From an uncultured bacterium (GTDB taxonomy: Bacteria; Planctomycetota; UBA8108; UBA1146): a DNA stretch of 64,000 nucleotides. How positions within the stretch are numbered: position 1 is the first letter of the stretch; every line of letters starts with the position of its first letter. The notes under the pieces are model-generated. The model was not told where the DNA came from, made no database searches, and saw only the letters and a list, made by a program, of their open reading frames with translations. The stretch is from positions 17,353-81,352 of the forward strand of contig CAJXMG010000002.1 in assembly GCA_913056395.1 (NCBI GenBank). Direction: 5' to 3'. Below are positions 22,093-46,268 of the stretch, piece by piece. The translations under genes were made by a program, and so were the position numbers.

Positions 22093-22104
22093 GCTGATCC
22101 CTCC

Positions 22105-23628: not shown

Positions 23629-23765
23629 GGGGTTGAATTTACCCTTGGGAAGGCCCAGAGGCCATCAGTACGGACCGTCTTGACGGGGAACTTTTCAGCC
23701 TGCAAGTTCAGGCCTTGTCAGTTCCTGACACTTCAGGCGTAAATCTGGAGGAGGGAGGAAACCCC

Positions 23766-29703: not shown

Positions 29704-31749
29704 TCAGGGGCAGGATGGGTGCTCAGAACATGAAAAGTGAGCCCCAAGAGGCGCGATTCCACATTCGGGGAAGGGCGATGGTGGACTGGCTCCACCGGAA
29801 AACTCATAGAAGAGCAGGTAGAGACCATCAGAGATATCCAGGAATCCATCGCCATTGGCATCCGCTGCTTCCTCACAGTTGATGATCACGAGATCACCGA
29901 AAACCCTTGAGATCAGCAGTACCGCATCCGCCAGCCGAACTCCGGGAGTACCATCCGCATCTCCTCGGATAAAAGTCGGTTCGCATTCATCTACGTACTC
30001 ATTGGCATTGGTATTCAGCAGTGGGTCACTCAAATCGCAAAGATCCGGATGCAGGTTGCCGTTACAATCCTCAACCACTCCTGACAGGACTGCGCAAACA
30101 TCGGGCAGGCCATCCTGATCACAATCGTCTTCACAGATATCCGGCAGACCATTTCCGTCACAATCTGACAATTGCCCGTTGCTGATCTCACACTCGTCCA
30201 GTTGACCGTTCTGATCACAGTCATTTGCGGGTATGAGAACTTCACAGACGTCAGGTTCTCCATTTTGGTTACAGTCTTGCTGACAAACGTCGGGAATCAG
30301 ATCCTCGTTGCAGTCCGACACCAGACCCAATGTTGTGGAACATTCGTCGGGGACACCGTCCGCGTCACAATCTGCAACTCCTCCTGAAAGGGTCGAACAA
30401 CTGTCGGGAACAAGATCCCCATCACAATCCGCAACCAGGCCCTCAGCGATGGCACAGGAATCGGGGATACCGTCGAGATCGCAGTCGTTTTCAGCGCCTG
30501 AGACGATCTCGCAGGCATCGGGTTCACCATCTCCGTCACAATCCTTGTCTCCACTGACCGAGAACTTCACTCCCCCTCCAAGAACAGCGGAAGTCGAATC
30601 GAGAGGAGCTCCTGCGAAGATCATTCCCTTGTCCATGGCGAGAGCCGATCCGAGAAATGACCCTGCGTATCCAGTCATATCACTCTCGTGGACCCACTCC
30701 TGAAGATAGCGGTAGATGCGAACTCTTCCCGTTGGCATCGCCTCATTGCCCATGTCCATGGGAGCTCCCACTGCCAACAGATTTCCATCGATGGCAAGGG
30801 TTGCTCCAAATCCGGTTCCGGATGAACCGCTATCCGGTGTCAGGAAGGGTTGAAGAATCCAGACCGAGTTCGACCGACGATAGGAAACCACTTGTCCGGC
30901 AAAGGGCCCTGAAAAACTGGAGTAAGGACTACCTATGAAAGCGTAATCAGACAGGAGGCAGACAGAGGTTCCAAAGCGGTCACCGGGCTGTGCCACATTG
31001 TTGCCAAATCTGGCGGATTCAAACCAACCGTCAGAACCACCTGAGTACAGAATGGCGATTCCACTATCGACCCCTGAAGCATCTCTGCCGGGAGACCCGA
31101 CCAGAAGTTGCCCAAGACTGTCGACCGAAATGGAGGTTCCGAAGTTGTCCCCTTCCACTCGATCATCCGCCAACAGCCTCTCTTCGAATTGCCATTGGCC
31201 CATGGAATTCAGGCGCCAAACTGTGACGCAGCCTGCTTCACCAACATCGGTGATAAATGTGGGACTACCGACGACCAGAACACCATCTTTCAGGGCCAGG
31301 CTACTGCCAAAGCCATCCCCATCTTCACCCTGGCTATCGACAACGATGGAATGGTAAACCCAGCCGAATCGGTCCCTCTTCCACATCTCGATGTAGCCGA
31401 GACCCGCAGCGCCGATGGCAAGCCAATTCCCATCCGCTGCCAGAGAAGATCCATACTCTGCACCGGATAATCCACTGAAGACATGCTCCAACTGGTAACC
31501 GGAGACACCTCTCTTGAAAGAACGAACACTGCCACTGAGGAAACCACCACCATCATCACCGATGGCGCCGACAAACACCCTTCCGCCACTCACAGCCACA
31601 GAGCGTCCAACCCGATCACCGGGATTGATCCCGAAGACTTGTAAATCATCTTCCACGCACTGGGACCAGAGTTGAGGTCCCTGAAGCGCTGCGATCAGAC
31701 AGAGGATCTGAATCGACAACCGGAAAATCCGGGAAAATTGGGGTGGCAT
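29704..31749 (-). CDS. Secreted FG-GAP beta-propeller protein with Cys-rich DCDxxGxPDxCE calcium-binding repeats and a C-terminal dockerin
   Basis: Repeated FG..GD / VGAP motifs, about 12 tandem DC(D/N)xNGxPDxCE repeats, and dockerin FIRGDADGTPGVRLADAV...DANGDGFLDISD. Start moved to MPPQFSRIF, which begins the signal peptide. Confidence 0.65.
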   Translation of the reverse strand: MPPQFSRIFRLSIQILCLIAALQGPQLWSQCVEDDLQVFGINPGDRVGRSVAVSGGRVFVGAIGDDGGGFLSGSVRSFKRGVSGYQLEHVFSGLSGAEYGSSLAADGNWLAIGAAGLGYIEMWKRDRFGWVYHSIVVDSQGEDGDGFGSSLALKDGVLVVGSPTFITDVGEAGCVTVWRLNSMGQWQFEERLLADDRVEGDNFGTSISVDSLGQLLVGSPGRDASGVDSGIAILYSGGSDGWFESARFGNNVAQPGDRFGTSVCLLSDYAFIGSPYSSFSGPFAGQVVSYRRSNSVWILQPFLTPDSGSSGTGFGATLAIDGNLLAVGAPMDMGNEAMPTGRVRIYRYLQEWVHESDMTGYAGSFLGSALAMDKGMIFAGAPLDSTSAVLGGGVKFSVSGDKDCDGDGEPDACEIVSGAENDCDLDGIPDSCAIAEGLVADCDGDLVPDSCSTLSGGVADCDADGVPDECSTTLGLVSDCNEDLIPDVCQQDCNQNGEPDVCEVLIPANDCDQNGQLDECEISNGQLSDCDGNGLPDICEDDCDQDGLPDVCAVLSGVVEDCNGNLHPDLCDLSDPLLNTNANEYVDECEPTFIRGDADGTPGVRLADAVLLISRVFGDLVIINCEEAADANGDGFLDISDGLYLLFYEFSGGASPPSPFPECGIAPLGAHFSCSEHPSCP

Positions 31750-31821
31750 TTTGGGACCATTCTCACAGGGGATGAATGCGATCAGAGGGCGCACTGGAAG
31801 AACACTGTGAGATCAATTCAA

Positions 31822-31858
31822 GCCGTCCTTCCGGAAGTGTCAATCCCGGAAGGACGGC
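31822..31858 (-). terminator. GC-rich 13-bp perfect stem-loop between the amidohydrolase operon and the FG-GAP gene (terminator or attenuator)
   Basis: gccgtccttccgg (loop aagtgtcaatc) ccggaaggacggc, with a weak U-tract on the minus strand. Confidence 0.4.
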
Positions 31859-31887
31859 CCAATAACATCAGTCAGGTAAGGCAGAGA

Positions 31888-33294
31888 CTAGCCCTTGAGA
31901 GGATCTCCCAAGCGACGTGGCCAATGATCGTCCGGCGGAGGAGCATCGAGATCTCCACCAGGCCTGATGTGATCAAGAATGCCTTCTTCTTCCTTGTCGT
32001 ACTGAATCTTGCCGTTGACGAAAGCCCAACGGACCAGAGTCATGTAACTGAGCAGATCACCGTCGGTGATGATGAAGTCGGCATCTTTTCCCACCTCGAG
32101 GGAGCCCACACGATCAGCCACACCCAGCAACCTCGCCGGTTCGATGGTGATCGCTTCGATGGCAACCTGTTCTGGCAAACCGCCTCTTACCGCAAAGGCT
32201 GCCTCCAGAGGAAGGTGAGAGAGATCCCGCCCGGCCAGTCCCCAAAGAGCAATCCCGGTACTTTGTGGAATGATGACCAGCGGTACACCGGCATCGTGGA
32301 GCATCTTTGCATTCTCAATGCTCGATCCGCTTTCACGGTTGAGATCCTCATTGGCATCCACGCGGGCGCGAGGCGAAATGACGGCGCTGGCTCCGGTTCT
32401 CGAAAGAACTCCGGGGTCGATCCACCCCTCCTCGGCTCCTTCAAAGACGATTTCAAAACCGTATTTGCGGGCCAAAGCAGAATACTCGCGAATCTCCGCC
32501 ATCGAACGGGCACGTACCAACGCCTGGCTTTCTCCGGTAAGCAAACTGCGAACCGTGGCGTAGATCCCCTTGATCCATTTGTCATCCGGGGCTTTCGCTT
32601 CAGGATCTTTTTTCTTCTCCTCGGCGTGGCGCTCCAACGCTCTCAGGTGCTCCTGAACCCGATCCATCGCACGGCGCAGTTCACTGCGGCCTCTGGGATT
32701 CCTGTAGCTGTAATTGATACTGCTGAAGGATTTGGGACGGATGGTCAGGTCCTCGAGGCTTCCATGAACCAGCTTGGTGACTCTCGAGCCGTTCCAGGTG
32801 GCAGTGATGCCGGCGGCCAGACCCATCGTCGTATCGAGATCGAAGGGGTCCTGGCTCTTCTCCGCTTCACCGGAACCGACCAATCCGGAAGAACGAAACG
32901 CGACCAGACCCGGATAAACATGGTGCCCCGTCGCGTCGATCACCTCTGCCCCCTCGGGGCCATCCACAGGACCGGCAACGATCTGATAGATCTTGCCGTT
33001 CTTGCAGATCAGGGTTCCGTTTCTGTGGGTTCCACCTGTCACGGTGTGAAGGGTGGCACCACGGATGACGAGGTATTCATCCTCCGAGTCCGCGGCGACG
33101 ATCTCCTTCTTCTCCGGCTCCGGTTCCGGTGCGGGAGGAGGAGGTTGACGGCGGCGTCCTCGACGGCGACGGGGAGGATCTTGTGCTTCCGAGATGCTCT
33201 CGCACAAACTGTAGCCACCCGGAATCACCGGCATGTCCGTGAAGACGATGACAAAAGCCAACAGAGCGGTGATGGTTCGAATCTTCTTCAACAT
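31888..33294 (-). CDS. Secreted amidohydrolase-fold protein, paralog 1 (HxH metal motif absent)
   Basis: Signal peptide. Amidohydrolase N-terminal beta-sandwich IRGATLHTVTGG...EVIDATGHHVYPGLV and C-terminal GSLEVGKDADFIITDGD. The conserved D-x-H-x-H is replaced by AFRSSG. Confidence 0.7.
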   Translation of the reverse strand: MLKKIRTITALLAFVIVFTDMPVIPGGYSLCESISEAQDPPRRRRGRRRQPPPPAPEPEPEKKEIVAADSEDEYLVIRGATLHTVTGGTHRNGTLICKNGKIYQIVAGPVDGPEGAEVIDATGHHVYPGLVAFRSSGLVGSGEAEKSQDPFDLDTTMGLAAGITATWNGSRVTKLVHGSLEDLTIRPKSFSSINYSYRNPRGRSELRRAMDRVQEHLRALERHAEEKKKDPEAKAPDDKWIKGIYATVRSLLTGESQALVRARSMAEIREYSALARKYGFEIVFEGAEEGWIDPGVLSRTGASAVISPRARVDANEDLNRESGSSIENAKMLHDAGVPLVIIPQSTGIALWGLAGRDLSHLPLEAAFAVRGGLPEQVAIEAITIEPARLLGVADRVGSLEVGKDADFIITDGDLLSYMTLVRWAFVNGKIQYDKEEEGILDHIRPGGDLDAPPPDDHWPRRLGDPLKG

Positions 33295-34613
33295 CAGCGA
33301 CCCTCCCGATCCCAGACCACTTCACCGGAGATGATGGTCTTCATGACTTTCACTCCCGGGTCGAGTAACGATCCATTGAGAAGAATCAGGTGGGCTGCTT
33401 TGCCCTCCTCGATCGTCCCCATCTGATCACCCAGTCCCAAAAACTTTGCCGGGGCAGAAGTCAGTGAGGCGATCGCATCTTCTTCAGACATTCCATAACG
33501 AACCTGCTCCGCCATATATCCAGGCAGTTCTCTCATGCCACTGGCACTGTCAGAGCGCGGCAGGGAGATCACAGAACACCCTCCCCGTGAGAGTGCCGCT
33601 GGAACATGGTAGCGGTAGTAGGTATCGGGCAAAGCGCTCATCCCGGGAGGAATCATGACCGTCGCCTTGCGCTCGATCAGTTCATCGACCACTTCATGGA
33701 ACGCACCGTTGCGACTTCCCGGCAAAACGAAGATCGATGGTGGATCCCGATCCTCCAACTCCTTGACGCTCGACATCGCCGCATCCACGTGCAGCATCGA
33801 ACCGGGAGAAGAGATCGAGATGACCAGCGGCATGGCGGAAGATTTCTCTTCGAGAATGTCCACCAGCGGAACCAGAGCAGGATTCATCGGCGGAGCCTTG
33901 AACTCCTTGGGACCTTCGTCTTTTTTCGACTTGTCCCCCTTCTCGGCTGCAGCCTTGTCCTTGTCGCCTTTTTCCGCTTCCTTCTTCTTCGCCTCTTCTG
34001 CGGCCTTCTTGGCCTCTTCCTGCTTTTTGTCCCACTCTTCCCGAGCCTTCTTCGCCTTTTCGATCTCCTTGCGGGCACCATCGAAGGCCTGAGACACGGT
34101 TCGGTAGAGTGAAGTAGAGCCTGTCACCGTCAGCGGCAGATAGACCGACTCCTTGAGGATGCGGTTCTCTGCTTCAGGTGCGGTGTGCACGATGACCGCT
34201 TGTCCGTGAAATCCGGTTCCGGCAGGAACAAAGGCGGCAGCAACAAAGCCTGCCTCCAGAAAAGATTCCCAATCCATTTCCGAGTCGACCCAGCGATTGA
34301 GAACCGTCTGGTCACAACCCACACCGCTGACTCTTCCACCGATCAAACCCTGGCTCGTTCGGGAGAGAACCAGTCCCGCCATCAATGTCTGATTCCGGGC
34401 CTCGATAATTTTGGCGTTGTCAGGAATCTCGAGCTGGTTGCCAATCAGGGTGATCTTGCCATCTTCGATGACCACTTCACCGGGACTGATCGTCTCACCG
34501 GTACCGGTGATCACCGAGCCCGCACGAATGACCGTGACCCGGTCCTCCGCCAGCAGATCCGAGGAGACCCCCGCCACCAAGGCAAGGATCCAGGTCCATT
34601 GAATGATTCTCAT
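33294..34613 (-). CDS. Secreted amidohydrolase-fold protein, paralog 2 (HxH absent; Lys/Glu-rich linker)
   Basis: Signal peptide, IRAGSVITGTG...KIIEARNQTLMAGLV, C-terminal TIEEGKAAHLILLNG. TGATG overlap with paralog 1. Confidence 0.7.
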   Translation of the reverse strand: MRIIQWTWILALVAGVSSDLLAEDRVTVIRAGSVITGTGETISPGEVVIEDGKITLIGNQLEIPDNAKIIEARNQTLMAGLVLSRTSQGLIGGRVSGVGCDQTVLNRWVDSEMDWESFLEAGFVAAAFVPAGTGFHGQAVIVHTAPEAENRILKESVYLPLTVTGSTSLYRTVSQAFDGARKEIEKAKKAREEWDKKQEEAKKAAEEAKKKEAEKGDKDKAAAEKGDKSKKDEGPKEFKAPPMNPALVPLVDILEEKSSAMPLVISISSPGSMLHVDAAMSSVKELEDRDPPSIFVLPGSRNGAFHEVVDELIERKATVMIPPGMSALPDTYYRYHVPAALSRGGCSVISLPRSDSASGMRELPGYMAEQVRYGMSEEDAIASLTSAPAKFLGLGDQMGTIEEGKAAHLILLNGSLLDPGVKVMKTIISGEVVWDREGR

Positions 34614-35854
34614 TAGAAAACCCTCTTCTCACTGGCTTCGTAGGTGACCTCACCATCGATCACCGTCATCTCGCAGGATGAACGGGGGTCGATCGGGTCA
34701 CCGGTCCAAAGGCAAAAATCAGCGTCGAGCCCCACAGTGATGCTGCCGAGACGATGGTCCATCATCAGTGCTTCCGCGGGGATTTTGGTGATGCCCTTCA
34801 GCGCCTCGTAGGGTTTCCAACCGTAGTAGCAGGCCATGCTCGCCTGGTAGGCCAACTCTTCCTGCGGCACCACCGGAGAGTCGGTGTTGATACCCAGCTT
34901 GCGCACACCCCCCTGCCACCAGCGGGCAGCATTGCCCATCAGGCGTCTCTGGGTGCGGTCGTAGTGCAGCTGTCTCGGTCCATTGATGGTGTAAATCGAC
35001 TCGTCTGCATTGACGAGCGGAGCCACTTTCCAGGCGTCGAAGGTGGAGTGGTCCAGCACCGTACGGATGTTGAATTCTCCTGCAACCATTTTGACGGTGG
35101 TCATCAGCACCTGGTAAATCTGGGTGTGAACCGAAGCCACGGTTTCACGACGGAACAGCGGTCTAAACTCTTCCCAGTTCAGGTTGAAAGCGGGCTCGAC
35201 CTCGAGGCGACCCTCTTCCCACTCGGTTCTTGCCAAGTGGTAATCCCGTGCTTTGCGCAGGGTCTGACGGGTGTTGAAGTTCATGAAGGAACGTCCCACA
35301 CCGTAGAAGTAACGCTCCGGGTTTCCTGCCTGGGCGATCTTCAGGGATCCGGGAGCCTTGATGACGGATTCCGCAACGGTGCCCTCGGAGGTCTTCATGA
35401 TCGTACCGAAGCCGGACATGTTGTTTCCGCTACCCGGGATCGTCAATACCGTCGTCACACCACCGGCGCGAGCGCGAATCATCTCCGGGTTGTCGGGGAC
35501 GATGGATTCCAGCGTGCGCAATCCGGGGTTTGTCAGATAGACGTAGTCATGGAGGTCGGGAGAGCCACCTCCGGTGTGGTTGTGGCACTCGACAAAGCCG
35601 GGAACCAGCCACAGATCCTTGTGCTCAAAGACCTTTGCTCCGGCGGGGATCATGATCTCTTTCGATTTCCCCACCGCCGTGATCTTTCCATTTTCGACGA
35701 TCACGGTGGCATTGTTGATCACCCGCTCTTCGGTATCAAAGGTCACCACCTTGCCGACCTTGAATGCCAGGGTCTCGGCGGTTGCATCCGCCGAAAGACA
35801 AACGAGGAACAGGAAGGCCAGGCTGAAAATCCATTGATTGGCAGAGATCCTCAT
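34613..35854 (-). CDS. Secreted amidohydrolase, paralog 3 (the only one with an intact HxH motif)
   Basis: LWLVPGFVECHNHTGG is the canonical amidohydrolase HxH. Signal peptide MRISANQWIFSLAFLFLVCLSA. TGATG overlap with paralog 2. Confidence 0.75.
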   Translation of the reverse strand: MRISANQWIFSLAFLFLVCLSADATAETLAFKVGKVVTFDTEERVINNATVIVENGKITAVGKSKEIMIPAGAKVFEHKDLWLVPGFVECHNHTGGGSPDLHDYVYLTNPGLRTLESIVPDNPEMIRARAGGVTTVLTIPGSGNNMSGFGTIMKTSEGTVAESVIKAPGSLKIAQAGNPERYFYGVGRSFMNFNTRQTLRKARDYHLARTEWEEGRLEVEPAFNLNWEEFRPLFRRETVASVHTQIYQVLMTTVKMVAGEFNIRTVLDHSTFDAWKVAPLVNADESIYTINGPRQLHYDRTQRRLMGNAARWWQGGVRKLGINTDSPVVPQEELAYQASMACYYGWKPYEALKGITKIPAEALMMDHRLGSITVGLDADFCLWTGDPIDPRSSCEMTVIDGEVTYEASEKRVF

Positions 35855-38574
35855 CGTTGGACCTCCTCTCCATTGACAAATACTCGCTCGAGGCGACTGC
35901 CCCCTTCGAAAGGATGACCCTTCCAAATGAGCAGGTCTGCTTCCATGCCGACACCGATCTGACCGATTCGGTCATGGGCGCCGACCACCTTGGCCGCTCC
36001 CCGGGTCAGCGCATCCAGTGCCGCATCCGCAGCCATTCCATTGGCCACTTCTCCACGGACCCTGAAGGGCAATCTGCGGGCACCATCAGCAGCGGAACTT
36101 CTGAAGCCGACTGTCACTCCTGCACGACCCAACCAGGTGGAGGGCATGTAGGTCGTATCTGCAGCCTCAAAGCTCATCTGATCCGGCAGCAACACGGGGA
36201 TCTTCTTCTCCAGAAGCAGATCCTTGTGAAAACGCATGAACTGATCGAGTTGAACGGCAAAAGGGATCTCCTTGCCGGTGAAGTAATCGACCACAGACGG
36301 CAAGGTGTTGAAGCCCCTCACCGACACGAGGACCGGAATCTTCTTTTCCAGTACCGAACGGATCGGCTCCAGAGTCGCCCGGACTCTGGGCGGCCTCGGT
36401 CGACCATCATCGTCCTGCTTCTTCCGACGGGTGACCTTGAAGGTTTTCGCCTCCTTGCTGGTCCGGGTTCCGGAAAGATCCGCCGAGAAGGTCAGGATTG
36501 AAACCTTGCCCTCCATCGAATCTTCACCGGTGAGCTCCGCTTCGATCCGAGGAGTGTCCGGAAGATCTCCTTCGGGAACTTCGATGGTTCCCTGGAGAGT
36601 CGTTCCCTCAAGAGTACCGACGATTCGTACCGGCACCGGCGGTGCAGGCTCGACCAGTCGACCCTCCCACTCTGATCCAGTCAGGGTGATCGAAAGAGTG
36701 GCGCTTTCAGGCTCGGGAATCGGACCACCACTGATGGTCATCTCCCAGATTCCGGTCAGAGGGTCATCCAGTTTCTCTTCCGGAACCTCCTCGACCTCCT
36801 CCTGCTTACTCTTCTCAATCTTCTCCCCGGCCTCTTTTTTCTTCTTCCACTCGGCGAGATCTTTTTCGTATTTTTCCCATGTCTCGAGGTACTTCTGCCC
36901 TTGATCAAAGAGACGACGAATCGCCCCGAATCCACTATCGGAGATTTCCAGGAGAAGCATCGAGTAGTGATCGTCGATCCGCGCTTCACGGCTGTCGCCG
37001 GAAGTTTTGGCGAGAACGCCGATCCCCGCTCCACGCTGCAGTCGCTTCGGTGCCAGCAACTGACTGGTCACTCCAGCCAGAGCCACGCTGTGCTCTCGGT
37101 CACCGGTCACTCCCAACATTCGATGCAATCGATCACCGGTTCCCATCGAGGCGGAGTCCCCCTCCAGTCCCAAATGGCCGTAACAATCGATGAATCCGGG
37201 GGCAAGAAAACTGCCGGGTCCGGCGTCGATCACCTGACAATGCGGCGGGTGAGGAACCCGGTGCCCGACCGCGGTTATTACACCGTTCTCGATCAGGACC
37301 TGAGCATCACTCAACTGTTCCTCAGGAGAGATCCAGATCGTCTCTGCGCTGATCACTTTGGTGTGCTGCTCCTCCGGCTGCCACGCTCTCAGGCCCTCGA
37401 CAAAAACCTCGAGGGGACGGGCGTGAATCTTCCAGGGTGCATCGTTCCAGACGACGATATCGGCGTCCGCTCCGGGATGGAGGTGTCCCACCCGGTCTGC
37501 AACTCCGAGGATGCGGGCCGCATTATGGGTCACCCAGGGAATCACCGATTCCGGGGAATCCATGGCAGCCGCCGCTTCACTCATCGCCCAACCCAACTGG
37601 GAAAGGTCATCACCGGGAGGGGCCAATGCCCAAGCGGGACTCCCCTTCAGATGCGGAAAACCGTGGGAGCGAAGGACGCCTCCGTTGGGAATATCCCCCT
37701 GAGGTCCTCTCATACGCAGGACCACAGGAACTCCGGCATCCGCCAGATCGGCTTCCATGGCGCCGACCATCGCATCCGCCACGAGATATCCCTGACGACC
37801 TTCCGACTGCATCATTTGAATCATGCCCTGGAGATCGGGAGCAGCATCCACAGAGATGCGCATGGGAACTCCAGTGCCCCAGACCTTGGCCAGCTCACCG
37901 TGAGCGAGAGCATCTTTTCCCGCCATATCGATGGCCTCACGCAAAGCGAGAAGACGATCAACCCGGCTGGCGGGTCTCTGCGGGGCGGGTGGTTCAATCT
38001 GAACATCACTGGACGCGGGGAAGGGGATCTCCAGAAGAGGATCGGGATTGTCGACCCGGTCTCTGAGGGAGATTGCCAGATCTGAAGAATCGACCAGCAC
38101 CCTGCCGGAAGGAGCACCCTCCAGCTTCACCACCGCCCCCTGACCCGACATCAGTCGGTGTTCACCGGGATTGACATGAATCGTGGTCACGCCTGTTTCC
38201 AGGAGTGGGCGATGATCGCCGTAGGTGTTGTATCCATCTACCGCACGGAATGCGGCGGAAATCGATTCGTCACCACGGTGGGGACCGACAACCGCACTGG
38301 AGGCCGCAACGAGCCCGGGTGTCACATAGGCGTCAGGCCAATGCAACAGCGGAAGATCACCCACCAAACCGGCGGAGATCTGGGCCCATGGACCACAATC
38401 CACGACACGGCCATCTCGAACGACGATGGCTCCATCCACCAGCGATTGCTGCCCGGTATGCAAATGCCCGGCGCGAAGAACAAAATCTCCGCCTGCCCGG
38501 ACCTCTGCCGATGGGAGCAACACCAGTATCAGGAGCAGTAACCCGGTCAACCGGGTCCACTTGCCTGTCTGCAT
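35851..38574 (-). CDS. Secreted tandem double amidohydrolase-fold protein, paralog 4 (two degenerate domains plus ~200-aa charged linker)
   Basis: Two amidohydrolase-like units (YVTPGLVAASS... and FLAPGFIDCYGHLG...) separated by a K/E-rich low-complexity segment. Signal peptide MQTGKWTRLTGLLLLILVLL. Confidence 0.65.
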   Translation of the reverse strand: MQTGKWTRLTGLLLLILVLLPSAEVRAGGDFVLRAGHLHTGQQSLVDGAIVVRDGRVVDCGPWAQISAGLVGDLPLLHWPDAYVTPGLVAASSAVVGPHRGDESISAAFRAVDGYNTYGDHRPLLETGVTTIHVNPGEHRLMSGQGAVVKLEGAPSGRVLVDSSDLAISLRDRVDNPDPLLEIPFPASSDVQIEPPAPQRPASRVDRLLALREAIDMAGKDALAHGELAKVWGTGVPMRISVDAAPDLQGMIQMMQSEGRQGYLVADAMVGAMEADLADAGVPVVLRMRGPQGDIPNGGVLRSHGFPHLKGSPAWALAPPGDDLSQLGWAMSEAAAAMDSPESVIPWVTHNAARILGVADRVGHLHPGADADIVVWNDAPWKIHARPLEVFVEGLRAWQPEEQHTKVISAETIWISPEEQLSDAQVLIENGVITAVGHRVPHPPHCQVIDAGPGSFLAPGFIDCYGHLGLEGDSASMGTGDRLHRMLGVTGDREHSVALAGVTSQLLAPKRLQRGAGIGVLAKTSGDSREARIDDHYSMLLLEISDSGFGAIRRLFDQGQKYLETWEKYEKDLAEWKKKKEAGEKIEKSKQEEVEEVPEEKLDDPLTGIWEMTISGGPIPEPESATLSITLTGSEWEGRLVEPAPPVPVRIVGTLEGTTLQGTIEVPEGDLPDTPRIEAELTGEDSMEGKVSILTFSADLSGTRTSKEAKTFKVTRRKKQDDDGRPRPPRVRATLEPIRSVLEKKIPVLVSVRGFNTLPSVVDYFTGKEIPFAVQLDQFMRFHKDLLLEKKIPVLLPDQMSFEAADTTYMPSTWLGRAGVTVGFRSSAADGARRLPFRVRGEVANGMAADAALDALTRGAAKVVGAHDRIGQIGVGMEADLLIWKGHPFEGGSRLERVFVNGEEVQR

Positions 38575-38575
38575 C

Positions 38576-40117
38576 CTAGAGTCCTCCCTTGCTTGCCGAA
38601 TCAGTATCCGGCTCGGGGCTGGGGGCGGGTTTCTCTTCGCTCTTGCCATCCTTCTTCAGGGGCTCGGCATCTTCCTGGGTCTCTTCTGACCCTTTGGCTC
38701 CAGCTCCCTCTTCTGTCGAACCTTCTTCTCCCTGGGCTTCCTCGCCGGATGCTCCCTCGGAGGTTTCTTCCATCTCCTTGGATTCGTCAGAACTCTCCCC
38801 TTCTTCCACTTCGGGGAAGAGACGTTGCAGACGGGCATCCATCTCGCGGTCATAGGCGAGGATTCCTTCGATCCAGACCTTCTGAACCCATGAGGTCATC
38901 TCCAGAGGGTTGCCGGTCCACATGACGATGTTGGCCACCTTGCCCTTGTCGATGGATCCGTATTGATCTGCGACTCCACAGATTTCGGCAGCCCCCAGAG
39001 TGATCGTGCGTAATGCCTGTTCCTGCGACATGCCGTTTCGAACCAGACGTGCGGCCTGATAGGTCAGAAGATTTTCCGGTATCACATTGCTGCGACCCGC
39101 CTGCAGGGCGAAACGAATTCTGTTCTTGCGCATCACCTCGGGAATAAAGGTTTCCTCCACCTCTCCGGTGATGGCATCTCTCTCGCGGTGGATCAGATCG
39201 CTGTCGAGAACCACCGGCACCTTGGCCTCTGCAATCTCAGCTGCAGCAAGGTGAGCGTCCCCGGAGAGCACAAGAACCGCCCTTCCGGTCCAGCCCCTGT
39301 CAGCAATCATTGCGATGGCAGGAGCCACATCGGTCGCAGCACCACAATGGATCCAGGCACCCAGCTTTCCGCCATCGAGATAAGCCAAATTGCGGTGACG
39401 ATCGTCGAGGTCCTCTTCACGGATCATCGACTTCCCCTTCTCACGCGCTTCGGCGGGAGGCAAGGGATTCAAATCGTCACTGTTTTCCGCTTCCTGTTCG
39501 TAACGTGTCTCGGCGAGGTTTTCATGCCAGCGATCAAACTCGCTGAAGACACCCCGCAGTTCTGCACGCTGGCGCAAACGGTCGTAACCACCTTTGGGTG
39601 TCACCGACATCTTGAGAGCGATTCCCGGCAAACGGGTCATCTCATCGGGAGAGAGACCGATGGGATGAACGATCCGGCTCACTCCACCCACCACGCAGTT
39701 GTTGCCCTGCATGACGTGAACCGTAGAGATGCCGTTTCTCAGGGAGTTTTCAAAGAAGAAACGGGAAGGGTCGATGGCGTCGTAGACATCGACGAAGGGG
39801 GCCACCGAAAGATTCTCGTTGGGAATGTCCAATCCGGCGGGGTTGTGGGCATCCACCAACCCGGGTGCCAGGATCATTCCGCTGCAATCCACTTCCATGG
39901 CATCGTAGGGAACTTCCATGTCTGCTCCGCCTACCGCCTGAATGATGCCATTCTCGATCAGAATGGTTCCATCGACGACGGGTGCGCCGGAGACGGTCAG
40001 GATCTTGCCGCCTGTCAGGGCCACCTTGGGAGATGACTGGGCTTCTGCGACTCCCTGCTGAAAGAACAGCAGGAGGGCGATTCCCAGAGTCAGGAATTTG
40101 TGAGTCAGGGTCGACAT
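38576..40117 (-). CDS. Secreted amidohydrolase-fold protein, paralog 5 (HNP in place of HxH; acidic C-terminal tail)
   Basis: Signal peptide MSTLTHKFLTLGIALLLFF, MILAPGLVDAHNPAG, C-terminal GSIDKGKVANIVMWTG. Confidence 0.7.
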   Translation of the reverse strand: MSTLTHKFLTLGIALLLFFQQGVAEAQSSPKVALTGGKILTVSGAPVVDGTILIENGIIQAVGGADMEVPYDAMEVDCSGMILAPGLVDAHNPAGLDIPNENLSVAPFVDVYDAIDPSRFFFENSLRNGISTVHVMQGNNCVVGGVSRIVHPIGLSPDEMTRLPGIALKMSVTPKGGYDRLRQRAELRGVFSEFDRWHENLAETRYEQEAENSDDLNPLPPAEAREKGKSMIREEDLDDRHRNLAYLDGGKLGAWIHCGAATDVAPAIAMIADRGWTGRAVLVLSGDAHLAAAEIAEAKVPVVLDSDLIHRERDAITGEVEETFIPEVMRKNRIRFALQAGRSNVIPENLLTYQAARLVRNGMSQEQALRTITLGAAEICGVADQYGSIDKGKVANIVMWTGNPLEMTSWVQKVWIEGILAYDREMDARLQRLFPEVEEGESSDESKEMEETSEGASGEEAQGEEGSTEEGAGAKGSEETQEDAEPLKKDGKSEEKPAPSPEPDTDSASKGGL

Positions 40118-40168
40118 CGATTACCTCGGTTTCAATACTTCCTCCGCAGTGCGGGTGGAAGGTTTAGC

Positions 40169-41698
40169 TCAATTTCTCTCGTATGAAAGTACACCGTCCA
40201 GCATGACCTTTTCGATGCGGGTCAAGGCTGAGAATGGGGAACCGTTCCAACAAACCAGGTCAGCTCTGCGTCCCGGTTCCAGGGTTCCCACTTCTTTTTC
40301 GATTCCCAGCAACTGGGCCGGGTACTGAGTCACCATTCGCAACGCCTCCGCAGGATCGACTCCGTATCGAATCGCCAGCATCGCCTGACGGGCAAGGCCC
40401 TCTTCACCGCGCAGGTCCTGCGCACTGAGAGCCATCGGGATGCCGGCGTCAGAAAGATCGCGGACCGTGTGAAGCCTTCGGTTACGAAGTTCACGGGACC
40501 CGGCAATGATTCCGCTGGGTTGATCAAAGATGGGACCGAAGACCACGGGAGTTCCTGTTTGCTTGAGCAGGTCGACCCGCTTCCACGCTTCCACCGGATC
40601 TTCCAGTGTGAAGGAAATGCCAAACTCATTGGCAAAGCGGAAGGCGGTTTCGATGTCACTGCCGGTTCTGGCCTGAATTCTCATCGGCACATCACCGGCG
40701 AGGACTCCCTGCAAAACCCGGGAGGCTTCTGCAGAGGTTTTGTCGGCACCGGTCGGCTCAAGGCCCCGGGCGCGAAGAAGGGCATCGTAGAAGGCTCTGC
40801 GGAAAACCCAGCCCACGCCCATTCGGGAATCGGGGCGACGGGTGTAGATGGAAACAAAGCCGCGGAAAGGGCTGCGATTCCGGGTGCCGTAGCGGTAGGC
40901 GTCACTGCCGACCACCGTTTTGACAGAACCGGTTCCCATGAAGCGATCGGTGATGGGACCGCCGGTACGCATCGTGGCTCCGCGGGACCCGATCACGGCA
41001 GATCCATCGGGACTGATGTAAACCGTGGTCACCCCCTCCTGGAGCAAACGATCAAAATCTTTCGATCCGTGATCGATACCGTCCATGATCTCGAATTGGG
41101 GAACCACCTCGCTCGACTGATCGGTGATGAGTCCACTCTCGCTGGGAACTCCCGCAGCCATCGCTTCGCGCTTCAGCTCAGCGAGTTCCTCTTCTTCCTC
41201 TTCCTCATCATGGGCGTGGGCATGGGGGTCATGCTCCGGGTATCCACAGAAGAGGCAACTCTCATCATGGCGGTGAAGAGTTTGTGCAGGACAAACGGTT
41301 CCACAGGGGCAGACATCACCACCGTGATACTGGTCTTCCATCCCCAATGCTCGAAGGATCGTCAATCGCGGATCCTCGGTGGGATAGAGCATGGCATCCA
41401 TCACGTCGATCTTGGCGTTGGCATCGATCAGGCCAGGGGTCACTTCTGCGACCTCCATGACCTCCAGTCCTTCCGGAACAGCTCCGCCGGAAGTGACACT
41501 TTCGATTCGCCCGTCACGGACGACGATGACCGCATTGTCGACGGTCTGACCATTGCCGACGTGAGCCTTGCCCGCCTTGACGACATAGGAGTTGACCGTT
41601 TTCACGGCCTCCTCTTCTGCCAACAGTGGCGAGAAACAGAAACCAATCACCAGACTGAAGACCCACAGCATCAGGGATTTGTTGAGTGTGTTGTTCAT
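40169..41698 (-). CDS. Secreted amidohydrolase-fold protein, paralog 6 (HxH absent; Cys/His-rich insert plus poly-Glu)
   Basis: Signal peptide, TPGLIDANAKIDVMDA (no His), an insert CPCGTVCPAQTLHRHDESCLFCGYPEHDPHAHAHDEEEEEEE, C-terminal GTLEPGRRADLVCWNG. Confidence 0.7.
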   Translation of the reverse strand: MNNTLNKSLMLWVFSLVIGFCFSPLLAEEEAVKTVNSYVVKAGKAHVGNGQTVDNAVIVVRDGRIESVTSGGAVPEGLEVMEVAEVTPGLIDANAKIDVMDAMLYPTEDPRLTILRALGMEDQYHGGDVCPCGTVCPAQTLHRHDESCLFCGYPEHDPHAHAHDEEEEEEELAELKREAMAAGVPSESGLITDQSSEVVPQFEIMDGIDHGSKDFDRLLQEGVTTVYISPDGSAVIGSRGATMRTGGPITDRFMGTGSVKTVVGSDAYRYGTRNRSPFRGFVSIYTRRPDSRMGVGWVFRRAFYDALLRARGLEPTGADKTSAEASRVLQGVLAGDVPMRIQARTGSDIETAFRFANEFGISFTLEDPVEAWKRVDLLKQTGTPVVFGPIFDQPSGIIAGSRELRNRRLHTVRDLSDAGIPMALSAQDLRGEEGLARQAMLAIRYGVDPAEALRMVTQYPAQLLGIEKEVGTLEPGRRADLVCWNGSPFSALTRIEKVMLDGVLSYERN

Positions 41699-42888
41699 TT
41701 TCTGACGCTCTCCAATTCATCCACTTTTCCGGGTTCCGCGACCCGCGTTCCGTGCCCTCCACGCCAGACGTGAATCACGCTGGATGCGGTGTCGAGGGGG
41801 TCTCCCGAGAAAAGAACCAGATCCGCTCTCTTGCCTGCGGAAACCTCTCCCGTCTCCAGCGCTCCGGAAACTTGCGCCGGATTGCTGAAGAGGGCTCTGC
41901 GGGCAGCGGCGGCATCCATCCCTGCGGAAACAGCCATGGCTGCACTTCCACGGAGGTGATCCGCGGGACCCGCCGGAAGTCCACCGGCAAAACTTAATTC
42001 CACCCCTTGCTTCGAAGCCCTCACGGCCATCATGAGGTGTGCACGGCTTCCACCCTCCAACAGAGGGCCGACAACCATGTGCACAGGCTTGGGAAGATCT
42101 TTCATCAGATTCAAGGGGGAACGGCCATCTCCACCGGTGTGAATGAAGACCGGAATCGCATCCGCAGACCACGGCAACGCAAGTGCCTGGCGCAAATCGA
42201 TTCCCTCCGCCACATAAAGGAGACCCGGATCTTTCAAGGCCTCGGGACCGGTCTGCATCCATTCTCTCCAGATGGAGAGCAGTGCGGTTCGACTGGTTGG
42301 AACCCGGTTCGCTGAGAGAACCGAGTCACCCAATGCCAGCATCATTTTTCCGGATCCCAATCGGGTGGCGGAAGAATCGCTGTGGCAGAGGAAGGTCGCG
42401 CTCTTTCCATTGACGACTCCGAGGGGCTGCGCCACCAGCGTGGTGTAGAGCACCCCGTGGTGAGCCGCGACATCCAGCCACGGGTCCGTGGAGTCGAAAC
42501 TGCTCCCGGCGTCGAGCTGCTCGTCGACCAGGACGGTTCCGGAACGCAAGGATCCGGGTTTGCCGCGAGTGCCCAGCGCCCCCATGAGATCGTGCAATCC
42601 CGGGGTCAGGACCGACCCTTCCGGGGCGCGGTAAACCTGGTCAAACGCCTTCTCATCGACGGTGGAACCGGGTACCAGTGCCTGAATCTTGCCGTCATTT
42701 CCGACGATCACCGCCCAGTCCCCCTCCAGATTTCCATCGGGGAGAAGTACCTGTGCACCGGTAATCGCCACTCCGTTGCCACCGGCTTCTGCCGGGAAGG
42801 AAAGAGTCAGAGCGAAGAGCATTGCAAGACCGAACAGGAACAACCTGTTTCCCGAGTCCGGATTTTGGTGATTGGAGCGATTCAACAT
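41695..42888 (-). CDS. Secreted amidohydrolase-fold protein, paralog 7 (HxH absent)
   Basis: Signal peptide, VLTPGLHDLMGA, C-terminal GEVSAGKRADLVLFSGDP. ATGA overlap with paralog 6. Confidence 0.7.
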   Translation of the reverse strand: MLNRSNHQNPDSGNRLFLFGLAMLFALTLSFPAEAGGNGVAITGAQVLLPDGNLEGDWAVIVGNDGKIQALVPGSTVDEKAFDQVYRAPEGSVLTPGLHDLMGALGTRGKPGSLRSGTVLVDEQLDAGSSFDSTDPWLDVAAHHGVLYTTLVAQPLGVVNGKSATFLCHSDSSATRLGSGKMMLALGDSVLSANRVPTSRTALLSIWREWMQTGPEALKDPGLLYVAEGIDLRQALALPWSADAIPVFIHTGGDGRSPLNLMKDLPKPVHMVVGPLLEGGSRAHLMMAVRASKQGVELSFAGGLPAGPADHLRGSAAMAVSAGMDAAAARRALFSNPAQVSGALETGEVSAGKRADLVLFSGDPLDTASSVIHVWRGGHGTRVAEPGKVDELESVRK

Positions 42889-44216
42889 TAGAAGCGCCCT
42901 CCTCTCGCCGCCGAAGCTTCCTGCCAGACCACTTCACCGTCGATGATGACTTTCACCGGACGGGCGGCAGGCTGGGTCGCCGGGTTGGCACTCCACAGAA
43001 CGATGTGATTCTGCCCTGGCCGAAGGGAATCCCGACGACTGCGAAGACCTCTGAGGTTCGTCGACTGGGCACTCGAGAGTGCAGCTTCCCCCGTCAGTTT
43101 GCGGGTCATGCGCCAGAGGCCTTCTCCGGAACCTCCGCTACCGATCACCCAATCCATTTCATGCTCCTCTAGGAGCGCAGCAAGATTGGAGGATCTTCGC
43201 GGAGTCGTACTCAGAACTCCGGGACCTGAGGCCGCCATCGACGTCGCCGGTTGGTCGATAATGAAGGAAAGATCCTCCAGTTTTTTCAATTCGTCGATCA
43301 CCAGAGCCGCTTCATCCGCACCGTGGATGATCGCGTCCAACTGGAACATGTGAATCAACTCGCAGGCGTTCAGCAGGTCTGCAGATCGCCGGGCGGTGAT
43401 CAGAACCGGAATCTTGTGGTCCAGAGCACGCAGGAGGATATCGCTGTCCTCATCGAGATCGGGACGACGGGGCTTTTCGGGGGCCTTCTTCTCTTCGTCG
43501 CCATCATTGCCATCGTCCTTCTTGCCCTCATCGGAGGACTTTTCGCCCTCCCCTTCACCGTCCTTGGCCTGCTCCTCGACCCACTTCTTCAGCTCCTCGA
43601 GGTACTCCTCCAGGTCTGATTCATAACTGTCGAGGCTCTCGCGACGATCACGGGCATTGTTGAACTGCTCGACGATTTTGTCGAAAGCACGAATGCGTGC
43701 GGAAGGAGGTCCTGATGAGAGGTTGATGCAAAGGGCGGCCTCTTCCTCGATCAGCACGCCGTGCCCGCCACCTTCCGCTTCTTCAAGCGAAACCCAGCAG
43801 GATCTGCCAGAGATGCCACTGCCGCGAACCGGAACCAGATGGACCCGGGTCACCCCTGAGGCGAGAACCGTTTCGATATCATCCTTGGAAAAGCGATCGA
43901 AGCCATCCCAACTCCACTGCTTCGCCTCTCCCGATCCGCCCACGGGAAGGGTGAGAACGGAAGCGTGATCGACGAGACCCGCTGTGGCGAAAAGCCCCTG
44001 GGCCGGGATTTTTTTCGACATGAGTGGCACGTCTGCAGTCTGGGAGATCTCGGCGATCCTGCCGCCACGGATCATGATCGTCAGATCCTCGAGAGTCCCG
44101 TTACGGGTGGGTGCGCTGACACCCTCCAGAACAACCGGACGTTGAAACAACTGACCCTCTACCCAACCCGGGTAGAACAGGAGGATCAGCATCAGCCACA
44201 CTCTAGGTGAAGACAT
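42888..44216 (-). CDS. Secreted amidohydrolase-fold protein, paralog 8 (degenerate; Asp/Glu/Lys-rich linker)
   Basis: Signal peptide MSSPRVWLMLILLFYPGWVEG, LFATAGLVDHASV, C-terminal RDSLRPGQNHIVLWSANP. First gene of the operon, with a divergent promoter region upstream. Confidence 0.65.
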   Translation of the reverse strand: MSSPRVWLMLILLFYPGWVEGQLFQRPVVLEGVSAPTRNGTLEDLTIMIRGGRIAEISQTADVPLMSKKIPAQGLFATAGLVDHASVLTLPVGGSGEAKQWSWDGFDRFSKDDIETVLASGVTRVHLVPVRGSGISGRSCWVSLEEAEGGGHGVLIEEEAALCINLSSGPPSARIRAFDKIVEQFNNARDRRESLDSYESDLEEYLEELKKWVEEQAKDGEGEGEKSSDEGKKDDGNDGDEEKKAPEKPRRPDLDEDSDILLRALDHKIPVLITARRSADLLNACELIHMFQLDAIIHGADEAALVIDELKKLEDLSFIIDQPATSMAASGPGVLSTTPRRSSNLAALLEEHEMDWVIGSGGSGEGLWRMTRKLTGEAALSSAQSTNLRGLRSRRDSLRPGQNHIVLWSANPATQPAARPVKVIIDGEVVWQEASAARGGRF

Positions 44217-44544
44217 ATGCTTGGCTCTTTCCTCATAAGTCGTTGCCCTCGCAACGACTCGGCGCTCTTTCACACTGATTCGATCAAAGTCACGCACTGC
44301 TGCGGTTCACAAGCCTGCACCCGGACACAGCCGTTCAGCAGACGCGTTATTACTGCGGGCAGACTGCACTCCTGCCAGATGGCAAAACTCCCCCGTTATC
44401 AGGGAGTAGGTCCACCACCTGTGGAAGCCGGTACACAGACCGGTGTCTCTCACGTCAAACAATCAGGGCTGATCGCGCGGGGATTCCCCCCAGTTCGCTG
44501 AATACCCCTGCTGAAATCGTCTATCTCAATTCCCCCACCTCTGG

Positions 44545-44576
44545 GGAGCTCCAAAGGAATTGGAGAGCTCCAAAGG
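44545..44576. promoter_or_regulatory. Direct repeat GAGCTCCAAAGG x2 (spacer ~6 nt) in the divergent pdxS / amidohydrolase-operon intergenic region
   Basis: ggagctccaaagg aattg gagagctccaaagg, each unit containing a GAGCTC palindrome, about 200 nt upstream of pdxS. Confidence 0.3.
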
Positions 44577-44774
44577 TATCCCCGCGATTCATGTCCCCGA
44601 ATTTCCCGCAGGTCGAATACAGAATAACCACCAGAATCCGCCCATGAAACCTGTAACGTGCGCCGATCTGCTCGCATCAGGCCATTTCCGGGTGCAAACT
44701 CGGACTTGATGCGACAGAGCTGTGAAAGCCGCTGAAACCGTTTTCCAGTCTGTCAGCCAGAAAGGATTCAACCG

Positions 44775-45692
44775 ATGAATGACGGATATTCCTCCCCGCT
44801 CCGGGGAACCGGGCTCTCTGAGGCTCACAGAACCCGTATTGGCCTTGCTGAAATGCTTCGCGGCGGCGTTATCATGGACGTGACCACAGCCGAGGAGGCC
44901 CACGTGGCCCAGGAGGCCGGAGCAGTAGCGGTGATGGCCCTCGAAAGAGTGCCCTCCGACATCCGCAGGGATGGTGGCGTTGCCCGCATGTCCCCGGTCG
45001 AAAAAGTGGAAGAGATCCAAAAGGTCTGCTCGATCCCGGTGATGGCGAAAGCACGTATTGGACACTTCGTTGAAGCCGAGATCCTGGAATCCCTCGAAGT
45101 GGATTTCATCGACGAATCGGAAGTACTGACCCCCGCAGATCACGCCTACCACATCGACAAGAATCGCTTCAACGTTCCCTTCGTCTGCGGAGCCACCAAT
45201 CTGGGTGAAGCCCTTCGTCGAATCGGCGAAGGTGCGGCCATGTTGCGCACCAAGGGCGAAGCAGGAACCGGTGATATCACCGAGGCCGTGCGTCACCTGC
45301 GGGCGATTCACTCCGAAATCCGCCGCCTCACCACTGCTCCCGAAGAGGAGTGGATGACTCTCGCCAAGGATCACGGTGCTCCCTATTCCCTCGTATGCCA
45401 GGTGGCAAAGGAAGGCCGACTCCCGGTCCCCAACTTTGCGGCCGGTGGTATTGCCACCCCTGCCGACGCAGCACTGGCAATGCGCCTCGGCGCAGAAGCG
45501 GTCTTCGTTGGCTCAGGGATCTTCAAATCGAAGGATCCCTTGCGTACCGCCAAGGCCATCGTTCATGCCACCGCCCACTTTGAAGATGCGGCTGAACTCG
45601 CCAACGCCTCCCGAAACCTGGGAGAAGCGATGCCGGGAATCGATGCCAGCAAGCTCTCGGAAGCGGAGCGTCTTCAGGATCGCGGCTGGTAA
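44775..45692 (+). CDS. pdxS: Pyridoxal 5'-phosphate synthase lyase subunit PdxS
   Basis: [26 protein letters not shown] and other strong PdxS matches. Confidence 0.9.
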
Positions 45693-45695
45693 ACC

Positions 45696-46268
45696 TTGGC
45701 CACTGTTCAGGCCGCTGTTCTCGCCCTGCAGGGATCTGTGGAACCCCACCTCAGATCCCTGCATGCCGCGGGTGCGGAACCCATCGAAGTCAGAAAGCCC
45801 GCAGAGTTGGACGGGATTACCCATCTGGTGATCCCCGGTGGCGAAAGCACCACCTTGCATCATCTGCTCAAGATTCATGGTCTTGACCAGCAGATTCCCG
45901 AGCGGGTTCGCGCAGGTTCACTGGCCCTGTTGGGCACCTGTGCAGGTGCGATTTTGATGGGCAAGAATCCGGAACAGGCTCCACCCCGTTTTGAACTGAT
46001 CGATGTGGATGTCGACCGCAATGCCTATGGTCGCCAGATCCACTCCTTCGTCGGGGAGATCGAGTGGCAATCGGGACCCGGTCCCGGCACGGGTGAAGGG
46101 GTCTTCATCCGCGCTCCGAAATTTGTCCGTATCGGTGAAGGGGTCAACGTCATCGCCCGCAGGGAAGATGAAGTGGTCGCAGTTCAACAGGACCGTTGCG
46201 TCGCCTGCTGCTTCCACCCTGAACTCACCACCGATCCCCGCCTCCACCGCTGGTTTCTGGGGATCTGA
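45696..46268 (+). CDS. pdxT: Pyridoxal 5'-phosphate synthase glutaminase subunit PdxT
   Basis: LVIPGGESTT, HPELT motifs, TTG start. Confidence 0.85.
   Translation: MATVQAAVLALQGSVEPHLRSLHAAGAEPIEVRKPAELDGITHLVIPGGESTTLHHLLKIHGLDQQIPERVRAGSLALLGTCAGAILMGKNPEQAPPRFELIDVDVDRNAYGRQIHSFVGEIEWQSGPGPGTGEGVFIRAPKFVRIGEGVNVIARREDEVVAVQQDRCVACCFHPELTTDPRLHRWFLGI

Follow-up and report, generated by a model that had tools for sequence, protein, structure and literature searches.

A conserved operon of putatively exported amidohydrolase-fold paralogs in Planctomycetota, with one complete metal site and features suggestive of a hetero-oligomer

The window analyzed here, i.e. a stretch of 64,000 nucleotides (nt) from an uncultured member of the Planctomycetota (contig CAJXMG010000002.1 of assembly GCA_913056395.1), contains a run of eight consecutive minus-strand open reading frames (ORFs) at positions 31888-44216, which according to the ORF listing and the translations encode nine domains with the amidohydrolase fold. 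From the first gene to the last, these are P8 (42888-44216, 442 amino acids (aa)), P7 (41695-42888, 397 aa), P6 (40169-41698, 509 aa), P5 (38576-40117, 513 aa), the double-domain P4 (35851-38574, 907 aa), P3 (34613-35854, 413 aa), P2 (33294-34613, 439 aa) and P1 (31888-33294, 468 aa). A first-pass annotation of the window had described them as eight coupled, consecutive genes, and this was confirmed. Three junctions (P8/P7, P3/P2 and P2/P1) consist of 1-nt overlaps and two (P7/P6 and P4/P3) of 4-nt ATGA overlaps, and the remaining genes are separated by gaps of 1 nt (P5/P4) and 51 nt (P6/P5). GGAGG-like motifs precede most of the gene starts, and none of the eight genes contains an internal stop. 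The start of P8 is called eight codons later by gene callers elsewhere, giving a product of 434 aa. No additional paralogs were found elsewhere within the window.

The cluster had also been interpreted as one transcription unit driven from the intergenic region between P8 and the divergent gene pdxS (44217-44774). The spacing of the genes fits this interpretation, but a scan identified neither a sigma-70-like promoter consensus nor an intrinsic terminator at either end of the operon. Consequently, we infer a single transcription unit from gene spacing alone, and the region 44217-44774 is the presumed operon promoter region on the basis of gene layout only. Scans of the window found no tRNAs and, with 44217-44774 included, no Rfam families. 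On the plus strand, long ORFs of 387-584 aa run opposite the operon genes (31672-33426, 34754-35917, 36901-38085 and 40469-41773). No sign of coding was seen in these, and they have the appearance of shadow ORFs that accompany GC-rich coding sequence.

Family membership was assessed with Pfam domains, with orthogroup profiles built from approximately 30-38 orthologs each (P4 being counted as two domains), and with structure models. Pfam Amidohydro_1/3 (PF01979/PF07969) matched P1-P6 above the gathering cut-off, with Amidohydro_1 E-values of 7e-14 for P6, 3.6e-12 for P2 and 9e-13 for P1, whereas the match to P7 was sub-threshold and P8 had none. Most of the matched sequence lies in the C-terminal G.L..GK.ADL segment and the N-terminal beta-sandwich, and two Amidohydro stretches are marked in P4. 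P4 consists of an N-terminal domain, P4a (37360-38574, minus strand), and a C-terminal domain, P4b (35851-37359, minus strand). When compared by hhalign with the P3 orthogroup profile, all nine domains aligned over their full length with a probability of 99.2-100%, the values being 99.2-99.8% for P8 and 99.4-99.8% for P7.

Comparison with the PDB covered P3, P4, P5 and P8, and repeatedly led to 3OOQ, a structural-genomics entry of ten chains for an uncharacterised amidohydrolase of Thermotoga maritima MSB8. This was the closest sequence match of P3 (E 3.5e-41, full length; next best 4e-11) and P5 (E 3.7e-30, full length; next best 3.8e-8), as well as of the P4 profile (E 1.8e-48; next best 4.6e-17). 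The AlphaFold (AF2) model of P4, based on a 40-sequence alignment, had a mean predicted local distance difference test score (pLDDT) of 83.7 and a predicted template modelling score of 0.73, and its top Foldseek match in the PDB was again 3OOQ (E 1.6e-20, target template modelling score 0.73; next best 1e-9). The P8 model, built from an 11-sequence alignment, is of low confidence (pLDDT 61), with 3OOQ as its top Foldseek match as well (E 1.4e-16; next 2e-7). Barrel and beta-sandwich were modelled for P4 and P8, and the other proteins were assigned by homology. The identity of 3OOQ to P3, P5 and P6 is 31-33% (33% for P6, from a profile alignment), which exceeds that between paralogs. Every paralog, and 3OOQ as well, has a helical insert between beta4 and beta5 that is often K/E-rich. 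P8 carries a K/E/D-rich helical insert and P2 a long K/E-rich one. The K/E/D-rich low-complexity segments seen in the first pass are thus present, but the shared position of the beta4-beta5 insert makes it a family trait and not a linker. The amidohydrolase fold proposed for all eight proteins is borne out by Pfam (P1-P6), hhalign (all nine domains) and the P4 and P8 models; these comparisons place the proteins in the amidohydrolase superfamily and, within it, in the uncharacterised 3OOQ-like group. As for the substrate, the closest named NCBIfam model, that of a Caulobacter Xaa-Pro dipeptidase (NF051886), gave 70.6 bits for P3 and 21-67 bits for the others against a cut-off of 500, too far below it for the substrate to be transferred. 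Public annotations of these proteins read "amidohydrolase family protein", "imidazolonepropionase-like amidohydrolase" or "hypothetical protein".

The canonical metal ligands, namely HxH (beta1), Lys/Glu (beta4), His (beta5), His (beta6) and Asp (beta8), were found complete in P3 only. Its six ligands, H91, H93, K172, H243, H269 and D325, with codons spanning 34880-35584, are the same in 37/37 orthologs, and in the alignment they fall on HSH, K, H, H and D of 3OOQ. P3 is the predicted catalytic subunit with a binuclear-type site, in which K172 would be carboxylated. None of P1, P2, P4a, P4b and P5-P8 has the full set, either in the window or in the orthologs examined in the main clade. In place of HxH, the window encodes RSS in P1, RTS in P2 (R-x-S/R among orthologs), SSA in P4a, YGH in P4b, HNP in P5, NAK in P6 (beta1 motif IDANAK), MGA in P7 and ASV in P8 (beta1 motif DHASV), and no P8 ortholog has HxH. 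P7 is without His at the aligned HxH positions, the sole nearby His being located just upstream in PGLHD, and in the window it has lost all six ligands. P4a has no metal ligands either, and the first His is replaced by N94 of P6 in 30/32 orthologs. The first-pass annotation had likewise seen HxH in the third paralog only and HNP, DHA, a single His or none elsewhere. The ligand alignments agree, with HNP in P5, DHA in P8, a single His in P4b and none in P1, P2, P4a and P6; ligands that were shifted yet conserved did not emerge from them.

The count of seven proteins with degenerate sites also stands, with the qualification that P5 retains three ligand-like residues and P4b one invariant His, H467. 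In P5 these are H91 (29/32 orthologs), K169 (30/32) and H241 (30/32). P5 has no second His in HxH and neither the beta6 nor the beta8 ligand, and the placement of its beta5 His is ambiguous, differing between two alignments. HxH is kept in P4b at seven loci, i.e. in six metagenome-assembled genomes (MAGs) labelled Pirellulales or Pirellulaceae and in L040, a shortened version of the operon described below, there without the other four ligands. Judging from the sequences, the metal-site degeneracy is ancient and stable across orthologs.

All of the proteins begin with a basic n-region and a hydrophobic stretch, and hydrophobic, signal-peptide-like N-termini were found in 25/30 to 36/36 orthologs per group. 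Since this was scored with a Kyte-Doolittle heuristic (an 11-residue window with mean hydropathy >= 2.0) and not with SignalP, it is at that level that the signal peptides noted earlier on all eight proteins are upheld. Inspection of the listed N-termini by eye revealed no consistent lipobox. The tandem double domain recognised in 35851-38574 proved to be general, as P4 has this architecture in all 120 best homologs (850-1005 aa). The P4 model has a high-confidence, continuous beta-strand junction between the domains (residues 387-416), and P4a and P4b are predicted to pack rigidly. P4b also contains an inserted eight-stranded beta domain at 36439-36768 (minus strand; approximately residues 605-710 of P4, with strands at 608-706 in the AF2 model). 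Its motif DP(L/I)TGxW...GGPxPEP is conserved in the 40-sequence alignment, and it has no Pfam match even at E<=10.

Further additions are peculiar to single paralogs. After beta1, P6 carries an insert (41114-41410, minus strand) consisting of a Cys/His-rich segment, CxC...C...CxxCG, followed by poly-Glu. The first-pass description of this insert holds, and all P6 orthologs have one (77-158 aa), but the Cys/His motif is clade-specific: its five Cys are conserved only in the marine clade of the window, being partial in others and absent in several Pirellulales. P5 ends in an acidic low-complexity tail of about 80 residues (38579-38827, minus strand), and in P1 the signal peptide is followed by a basic proline-rich stretch, RRRRGRRRQPPPP (33117-33180, minus strand). 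The two are lineage-specific and of opposite charge. The C-terminal tail of P1, ...RPGG...HWPRRLGDP, is conserved.

The order P8-P7-P6-P5-P4-P3-P2-P1 was found in 30 of 41 unique loci, distributed over Planctomycetia, Pirellulales and Phycisphaerae. Another nine loci hold canonical sub-runs, the majority of which are truncated by the end of a contig. The two remaining deviations are ORF-calling artefacts, and none of the 41 loci is rearranged. Homologs in distant relatives are thus clustered in strict order and not scattered, which favors the first-pass observation. Tight spacing recurs as well, e.g. in a Pirellulales MAG where gene callers place 4-nt overlaps at 5/7 junctions. The flanking genes vary between lineages, and it is only within the clade of the window that pdxS and the genes for an FG-GAP protein and a UvrD-type helicase are found repeatedly; the flanks of 20 diverse loci revealed no tenth subunit, transporter or regulator. 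One full operon belongs to a genome labelled Bacillota bacterium MAG 7 (L024, QNYK01000079.1). Since its P3 is 80% identical to that of the window and it falls among Planctomycetota loci, the phylum label is probably wrong.

The paralogs are mutually 15-35% identical, or 15-27% in one of the comparisons, and a bootstrapped neighbor-joining tree recovers all nine domain lineages as monophyletic, each with 100% support. Together, these two observations place the duplications before the divergence of the planctomycete classes. Deeper groupings are weak (P3 with 3OOQ 70%; P4a, P6, P7 and P8 57%; P2 with P4b 57%). An alternating A/B duplication pattern hinted at by hhalign scores was dropped, as only these weak deep bootstrap groupings were found. 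All eight genes are under strong purifying selection. Against a close relative (synonymous divergence, dS, 0.18-0.35), the ratio of nonsynonymous to synonymous divergence (dN/dS) was 0.006 for P3 and 0.024-0.07 for the others, e.g. 0.048 for P8 and 0.07 for P2. P3 is also the most conserved paralog by invariant columns (31%), with P2, P7 and P8 (8-9%) the least.

Searching 1.84 billion proteins with the P8 profile yielded 166 representative clusters at E <= 1e-30, a number that rises to 563 at E <= 1e-10, and among the proteins found were natural fusions of operon neighbors. Domain scans identified P8-P7 fusions of 875-898 aa (P0389, P0395, P0398 and P0399) and P8-P7-P6 fusions of 1324-1343 aa (P0370 and P0386), the P0386 cluster having 42 members of which most full-length ones measure 1280-1332 aa. 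No hydrophobic signal segment is present in the linkers of either type, and the fusions are accordingly genuine. A further apparent P8-P7 fusion, P0310, was excluded as a frameshift artefact. Where the operon context was available, the gene count changes and the domain count does not: locus L054 reads [P8-P7]-P6-P5-P4-P3-P2-P1 (seven genes, nine domains) and L055 [P8-P7-P6]-P5-P4-P3-P2-P1 (six genes, nine domains). Outside the Planctomycetota, a Candidatus Eisenbacteria assembly (GCA_035762625.1, L053:1780-9528) has [P8-P7]-P6-P5-P4, after which the contig ends.

The variant operons also differ in their metal sites. All six ligands are present in the P7-like domain of Eisenbacteria; those of the fused-clade Planctomycetota keep HxH and Lys and have lost the other three; main-clade P7 has lost all. 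In P3, all orthologs examined have the complete set. This series and the HxH remnants of P4b point to an ancestor with several active subunits, followed by stepwise, lineage-specific loss. A shorter version of the operon is found in L040:5779-14400 (CP070666.1, labelled Gemmatimonadota bacterium bin75), a chromosome-level sequence in which only P5-P4-P3-P2-P1 are present at the locus. The ORFs upstream were considered as equivalents of P6-P8 and proved to be unrelated to them. Either the cluster is split in this genome or a five-gene form exists.

Among known systems, 3OOQ is the nearest, with P3 sharing its six ligand positions and the operon domains its beta4-beta5 helical insert. It differs in that its ten chains are identical, whereas the operon encodes nine different exported domains, eight of them without a metal site; in the alignments made here, 3OOQ moreover starts directly at the beta-sandwich, without a leader. 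The next-best characterised relatives are the L-Arg/L-Lys carboxypeptidase Cc2672 (3MTW) and the Sargasso Sea prolidase/arginine carboxypeptidase entries (3FEQ/3N2C and 3BE7/3DUG), which resemble the operon proteins in their fold and in the C-terminal G.L..GK.ADL segment. Among these binuclear-metal peptidase entries are several with 8 or 16 chains. Unlike the operon proteins, they consist of one kind of chain with no pseudo-enzyme partners, and the matches to them span the N- and C-terminal segments only. Non-catalytic subunits with this fold are known from animals: CRMP-4 keeps two of the six metal ligands and has Leu for the carboxylated Lys, and the CRMP family prefers heterotetramers of paralogs (PMC4051505), which means that the amidohydrolase fold can serve as a non-catalytic subunit of a hetero-oligomer. 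The CRMP/dihydropyrimidinase-like proteins are nevertheless cytosolic, act in eukaryotic signalling and belong to the dihydropyrimidinase-like subfamily, and their five paralogs pair flexibly, have no catalytic member and are not operon-encoded. In Pseudomonas aspartate transcarbamoylase, PyrC' is an inactive dihydroorotase-like subunit that has no metal site and is structurally required. That enzyme, in contrast to the operon, is cytoplasmic, with a single pseudo-enzyme whose partner is of unrelated fold, and with no paralog series. In the eukaryotic 20S proteasome and CCT/TRiC, a homo-oligomeric ancestor gave rise to paralogs with fixed positions, only some of which keep the active site. The stepwise loss of active sites in the operon domains resembles this history, but the folds are unrelated, nine domains fit neither ring number and, for the operon, ring geometry and fixed positions are an analogy only. 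The first-pass annotation did not recognise the arrangement as a described system, and full-text searching of the literature found no description of the operon; the sole mention of 3OOQ was in a docking benchmark, where it is listed as dihedral.

On balance, and with modest confidence, we lean towards the products of the eight genes forming a single hetero-oligomer in the periplasm, in which one subunit is catalytic and eight domains serve as scaffold; here we infer both the assembly itself and its substrate. In such a scheme the subunits would be exported by Sec, made in near-equal amounts through coupled translation and assembled with their operon neighbors into a fixed complex. Hydrolysis, probably of a peptide or other amide or ester bond, would take place at one site only, that of P3, and the eight degenerate domains may form a scaffold, a gate for the substrate or a binding surface. 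The origin of the complex would lie in the duplication of a homo-oligomeric 3OOQ-like enzyme, after which active sites were lost step by step. The possibility of a multi-subunit assembly had been raised in the first pass, and it gains support from the strict gene order, the coupled spacing, the constant number of nine domains, the natural fusions of neighbors, the packed P4 double domain and the oligomeric state of 3OOQ. Gene order that is conserved in distant prokaryotes predicts physical interaction, as Dandekar and colleagues reportedly found in 1998, and operon order is said to tend to follow assembly order, a result of Wells and colleagues from 2016.

Several points weigh against this assembly. 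Co-assembly is deduced indirectly, from gene order, spacing, fusions and P4 packing, and conserved operons and fusions also occur for pathway enzymes that form no stable complex. Nine domains do not fill the ten slots of a 3OOQ-type decamer. The five-gene locus of L040 means that P8-P6 can be unlinked there or dispensable. Finally, binding of one metal is conceivable for P5, whose ligand-like positions hold H, K and H, and the mapping of mid-barrel ligands, which uses alignments at 15-25% identity, is less certain than that of the HxH position.

The eight adjacent same-strand paralogs could at first sight be the product of a recent local amplification with decaying copies, or else a toxin/antitoxin-like decoy family, as the first-pass annotation had considered. 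We regard both as refuted. Copies of recent origin would not be only 15-35% identical with 1:1 orthologs across planctomycete classes and 100% bootstrap for each lineage, nor would decaying ones have dN/dS values of 0.006-0.07 and no internal stops, and the window holds no mobile-element, tRNA or RNA features. Duplication in situ is therefore not recent, the paralog lineages being ancient. For toxin-antitoxin or decoy genes, the proteins are large and exported, and their fixed phylum-wide order, vertical conservation and strong purifying selection, outside any mobile-element context, do not match that class, which is marked by small linked toxin/antidote pairs, a mobile or patchy distribution and rapid turnover.

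A co-regulated set that does not assemble seems to us an unlikely, though more serious, alternative. In this, P3 would be a free periplasmic hydrolase and the seven others separate pseudo-enzymes, each binding a ligand of its own, i.e. a substrate-capture array whose members share an operon only on account of a common nutritional task. All of the proteins have signal-peptide-like N-termini, the pseudo-enzymes keep the fold along with paralog-specific conserved motifs that could line binding pockets, and P5-P1 of L040 stand without P8-P6 at their locus. Independent binding proteins, however, rarely hold a strict order throughout a phylum, with not one rearrangement in 41 loci, and would rarely retain exactly nine domains while gene boundaries shift; neighbors fused without linker signal peptides and P4 domains predicted to pack rigidly are likewise difficult to reconcile with separate action. 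Less probable still is a multi-enzyme pathway, in which the degenerate paralogs would be enzymes with non-canonical or metal-independent chemistry performing consecutive hydrolytic steps. Metal-independent members of the amidohydrolase superfamily exist (e.g. LigI), purifying selection is strong on all genes, H91, K169 and H241 of P5 and the invariant H467 of P4b are retained, and in other lineages the P7-like domains have all or part of the ligand set. In P1, P2, P4a, P6, P7 and P8, on the other hand, the ligand positions are occupied by Arg, Ser, Ala, Asn, Gly or Leu, with variation among orthologs at several of them. A conserved set of alternative catalytic residues would not look like this; the low share of invariant columns in P2, P7 and P8, as compared with P3, points in the same direction.

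If the nine domains do assemble, the transition from a homomeric enzyme to a fixed hetero-oligomer of paralogs with a single active site would be visible here with unusual clarity for a prokaryote, its intermediates being extant in other lineages, namely two liganded subunits, partial ligand sets and fused neighbors. A bolder version, which we consider tentative and rather doubtful, is that an obligate periplasmic assembly of nine fixed, non-interchangeable domains around a single site has replaced a homo-oligomeric 3OOQ-like enzyme of ten chains and dihedral symmetry, its sites being switched off lineage by lineage in the manner of the proteasome or CCT, throughout the Planctomycetota and at least also in Candidatus Eisenbacteria. 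If true, it would represent a large, previously unseen periplasmic machine in a phylum of unusual envelope biology, and the Eisenbacteria, fused-clade and main-clade versions would make the stepwise degeneration directly comparable. In any case, roughly 12 kb of coding sequence that is conserved and under strong selection amounts to sizeable unexplored periplasmic biology in the ecologically abundant Planctomycetota, and P3 is a defined target for enzymology, together with the uncharacterised 3OOQ family.

The immediate surroundings of the operon are particular to the clade of the window. P1 is followed after 93 nt by a gene of the same orientation (29704-31794), which encodes a secreted FG-GAP repeat protein with long C-terminal Cys-rich DCDxDGxPD repeats and a dockerin/EF-hand-like tail. 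It adjoins the operon only in this clade, and is not homologous to the FG-GAP gene that follows P1 in L055. On the other side, pdxS and pdxT (pyridoxal-phosphate synthase) occupy 44775-46268 (plus strand), divergent from the operon and likewise adjacent only in this clade.

Further away, an AddAB/RecBCD-like pair is found at 23715-29686 (plus strand), composed of a PD-(D/E)XK nuclease protein (944 aa) and, with a 4-nt overlap, a UvrD-type helicase (1046 aa). The minus-strand region 19258-23628 encodes a molybdopterin oxidoreductase (944 aa) and a fused 4Fe-4S dicluster/NrfD-like membrane protein (507 aa), a pair that looks like a polysulfide-reductase or alternative-complex-III-type module. 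Lastly, a DUF885 protein is encoded at 16044-17948 (plus strand; E 9e-168). Genes of Asparaginase_2 and this same family directly follow P1 in L040, and the presence of DUF885 both in the window and beside the L040 operon makes a loose link to peptide degradation possible.

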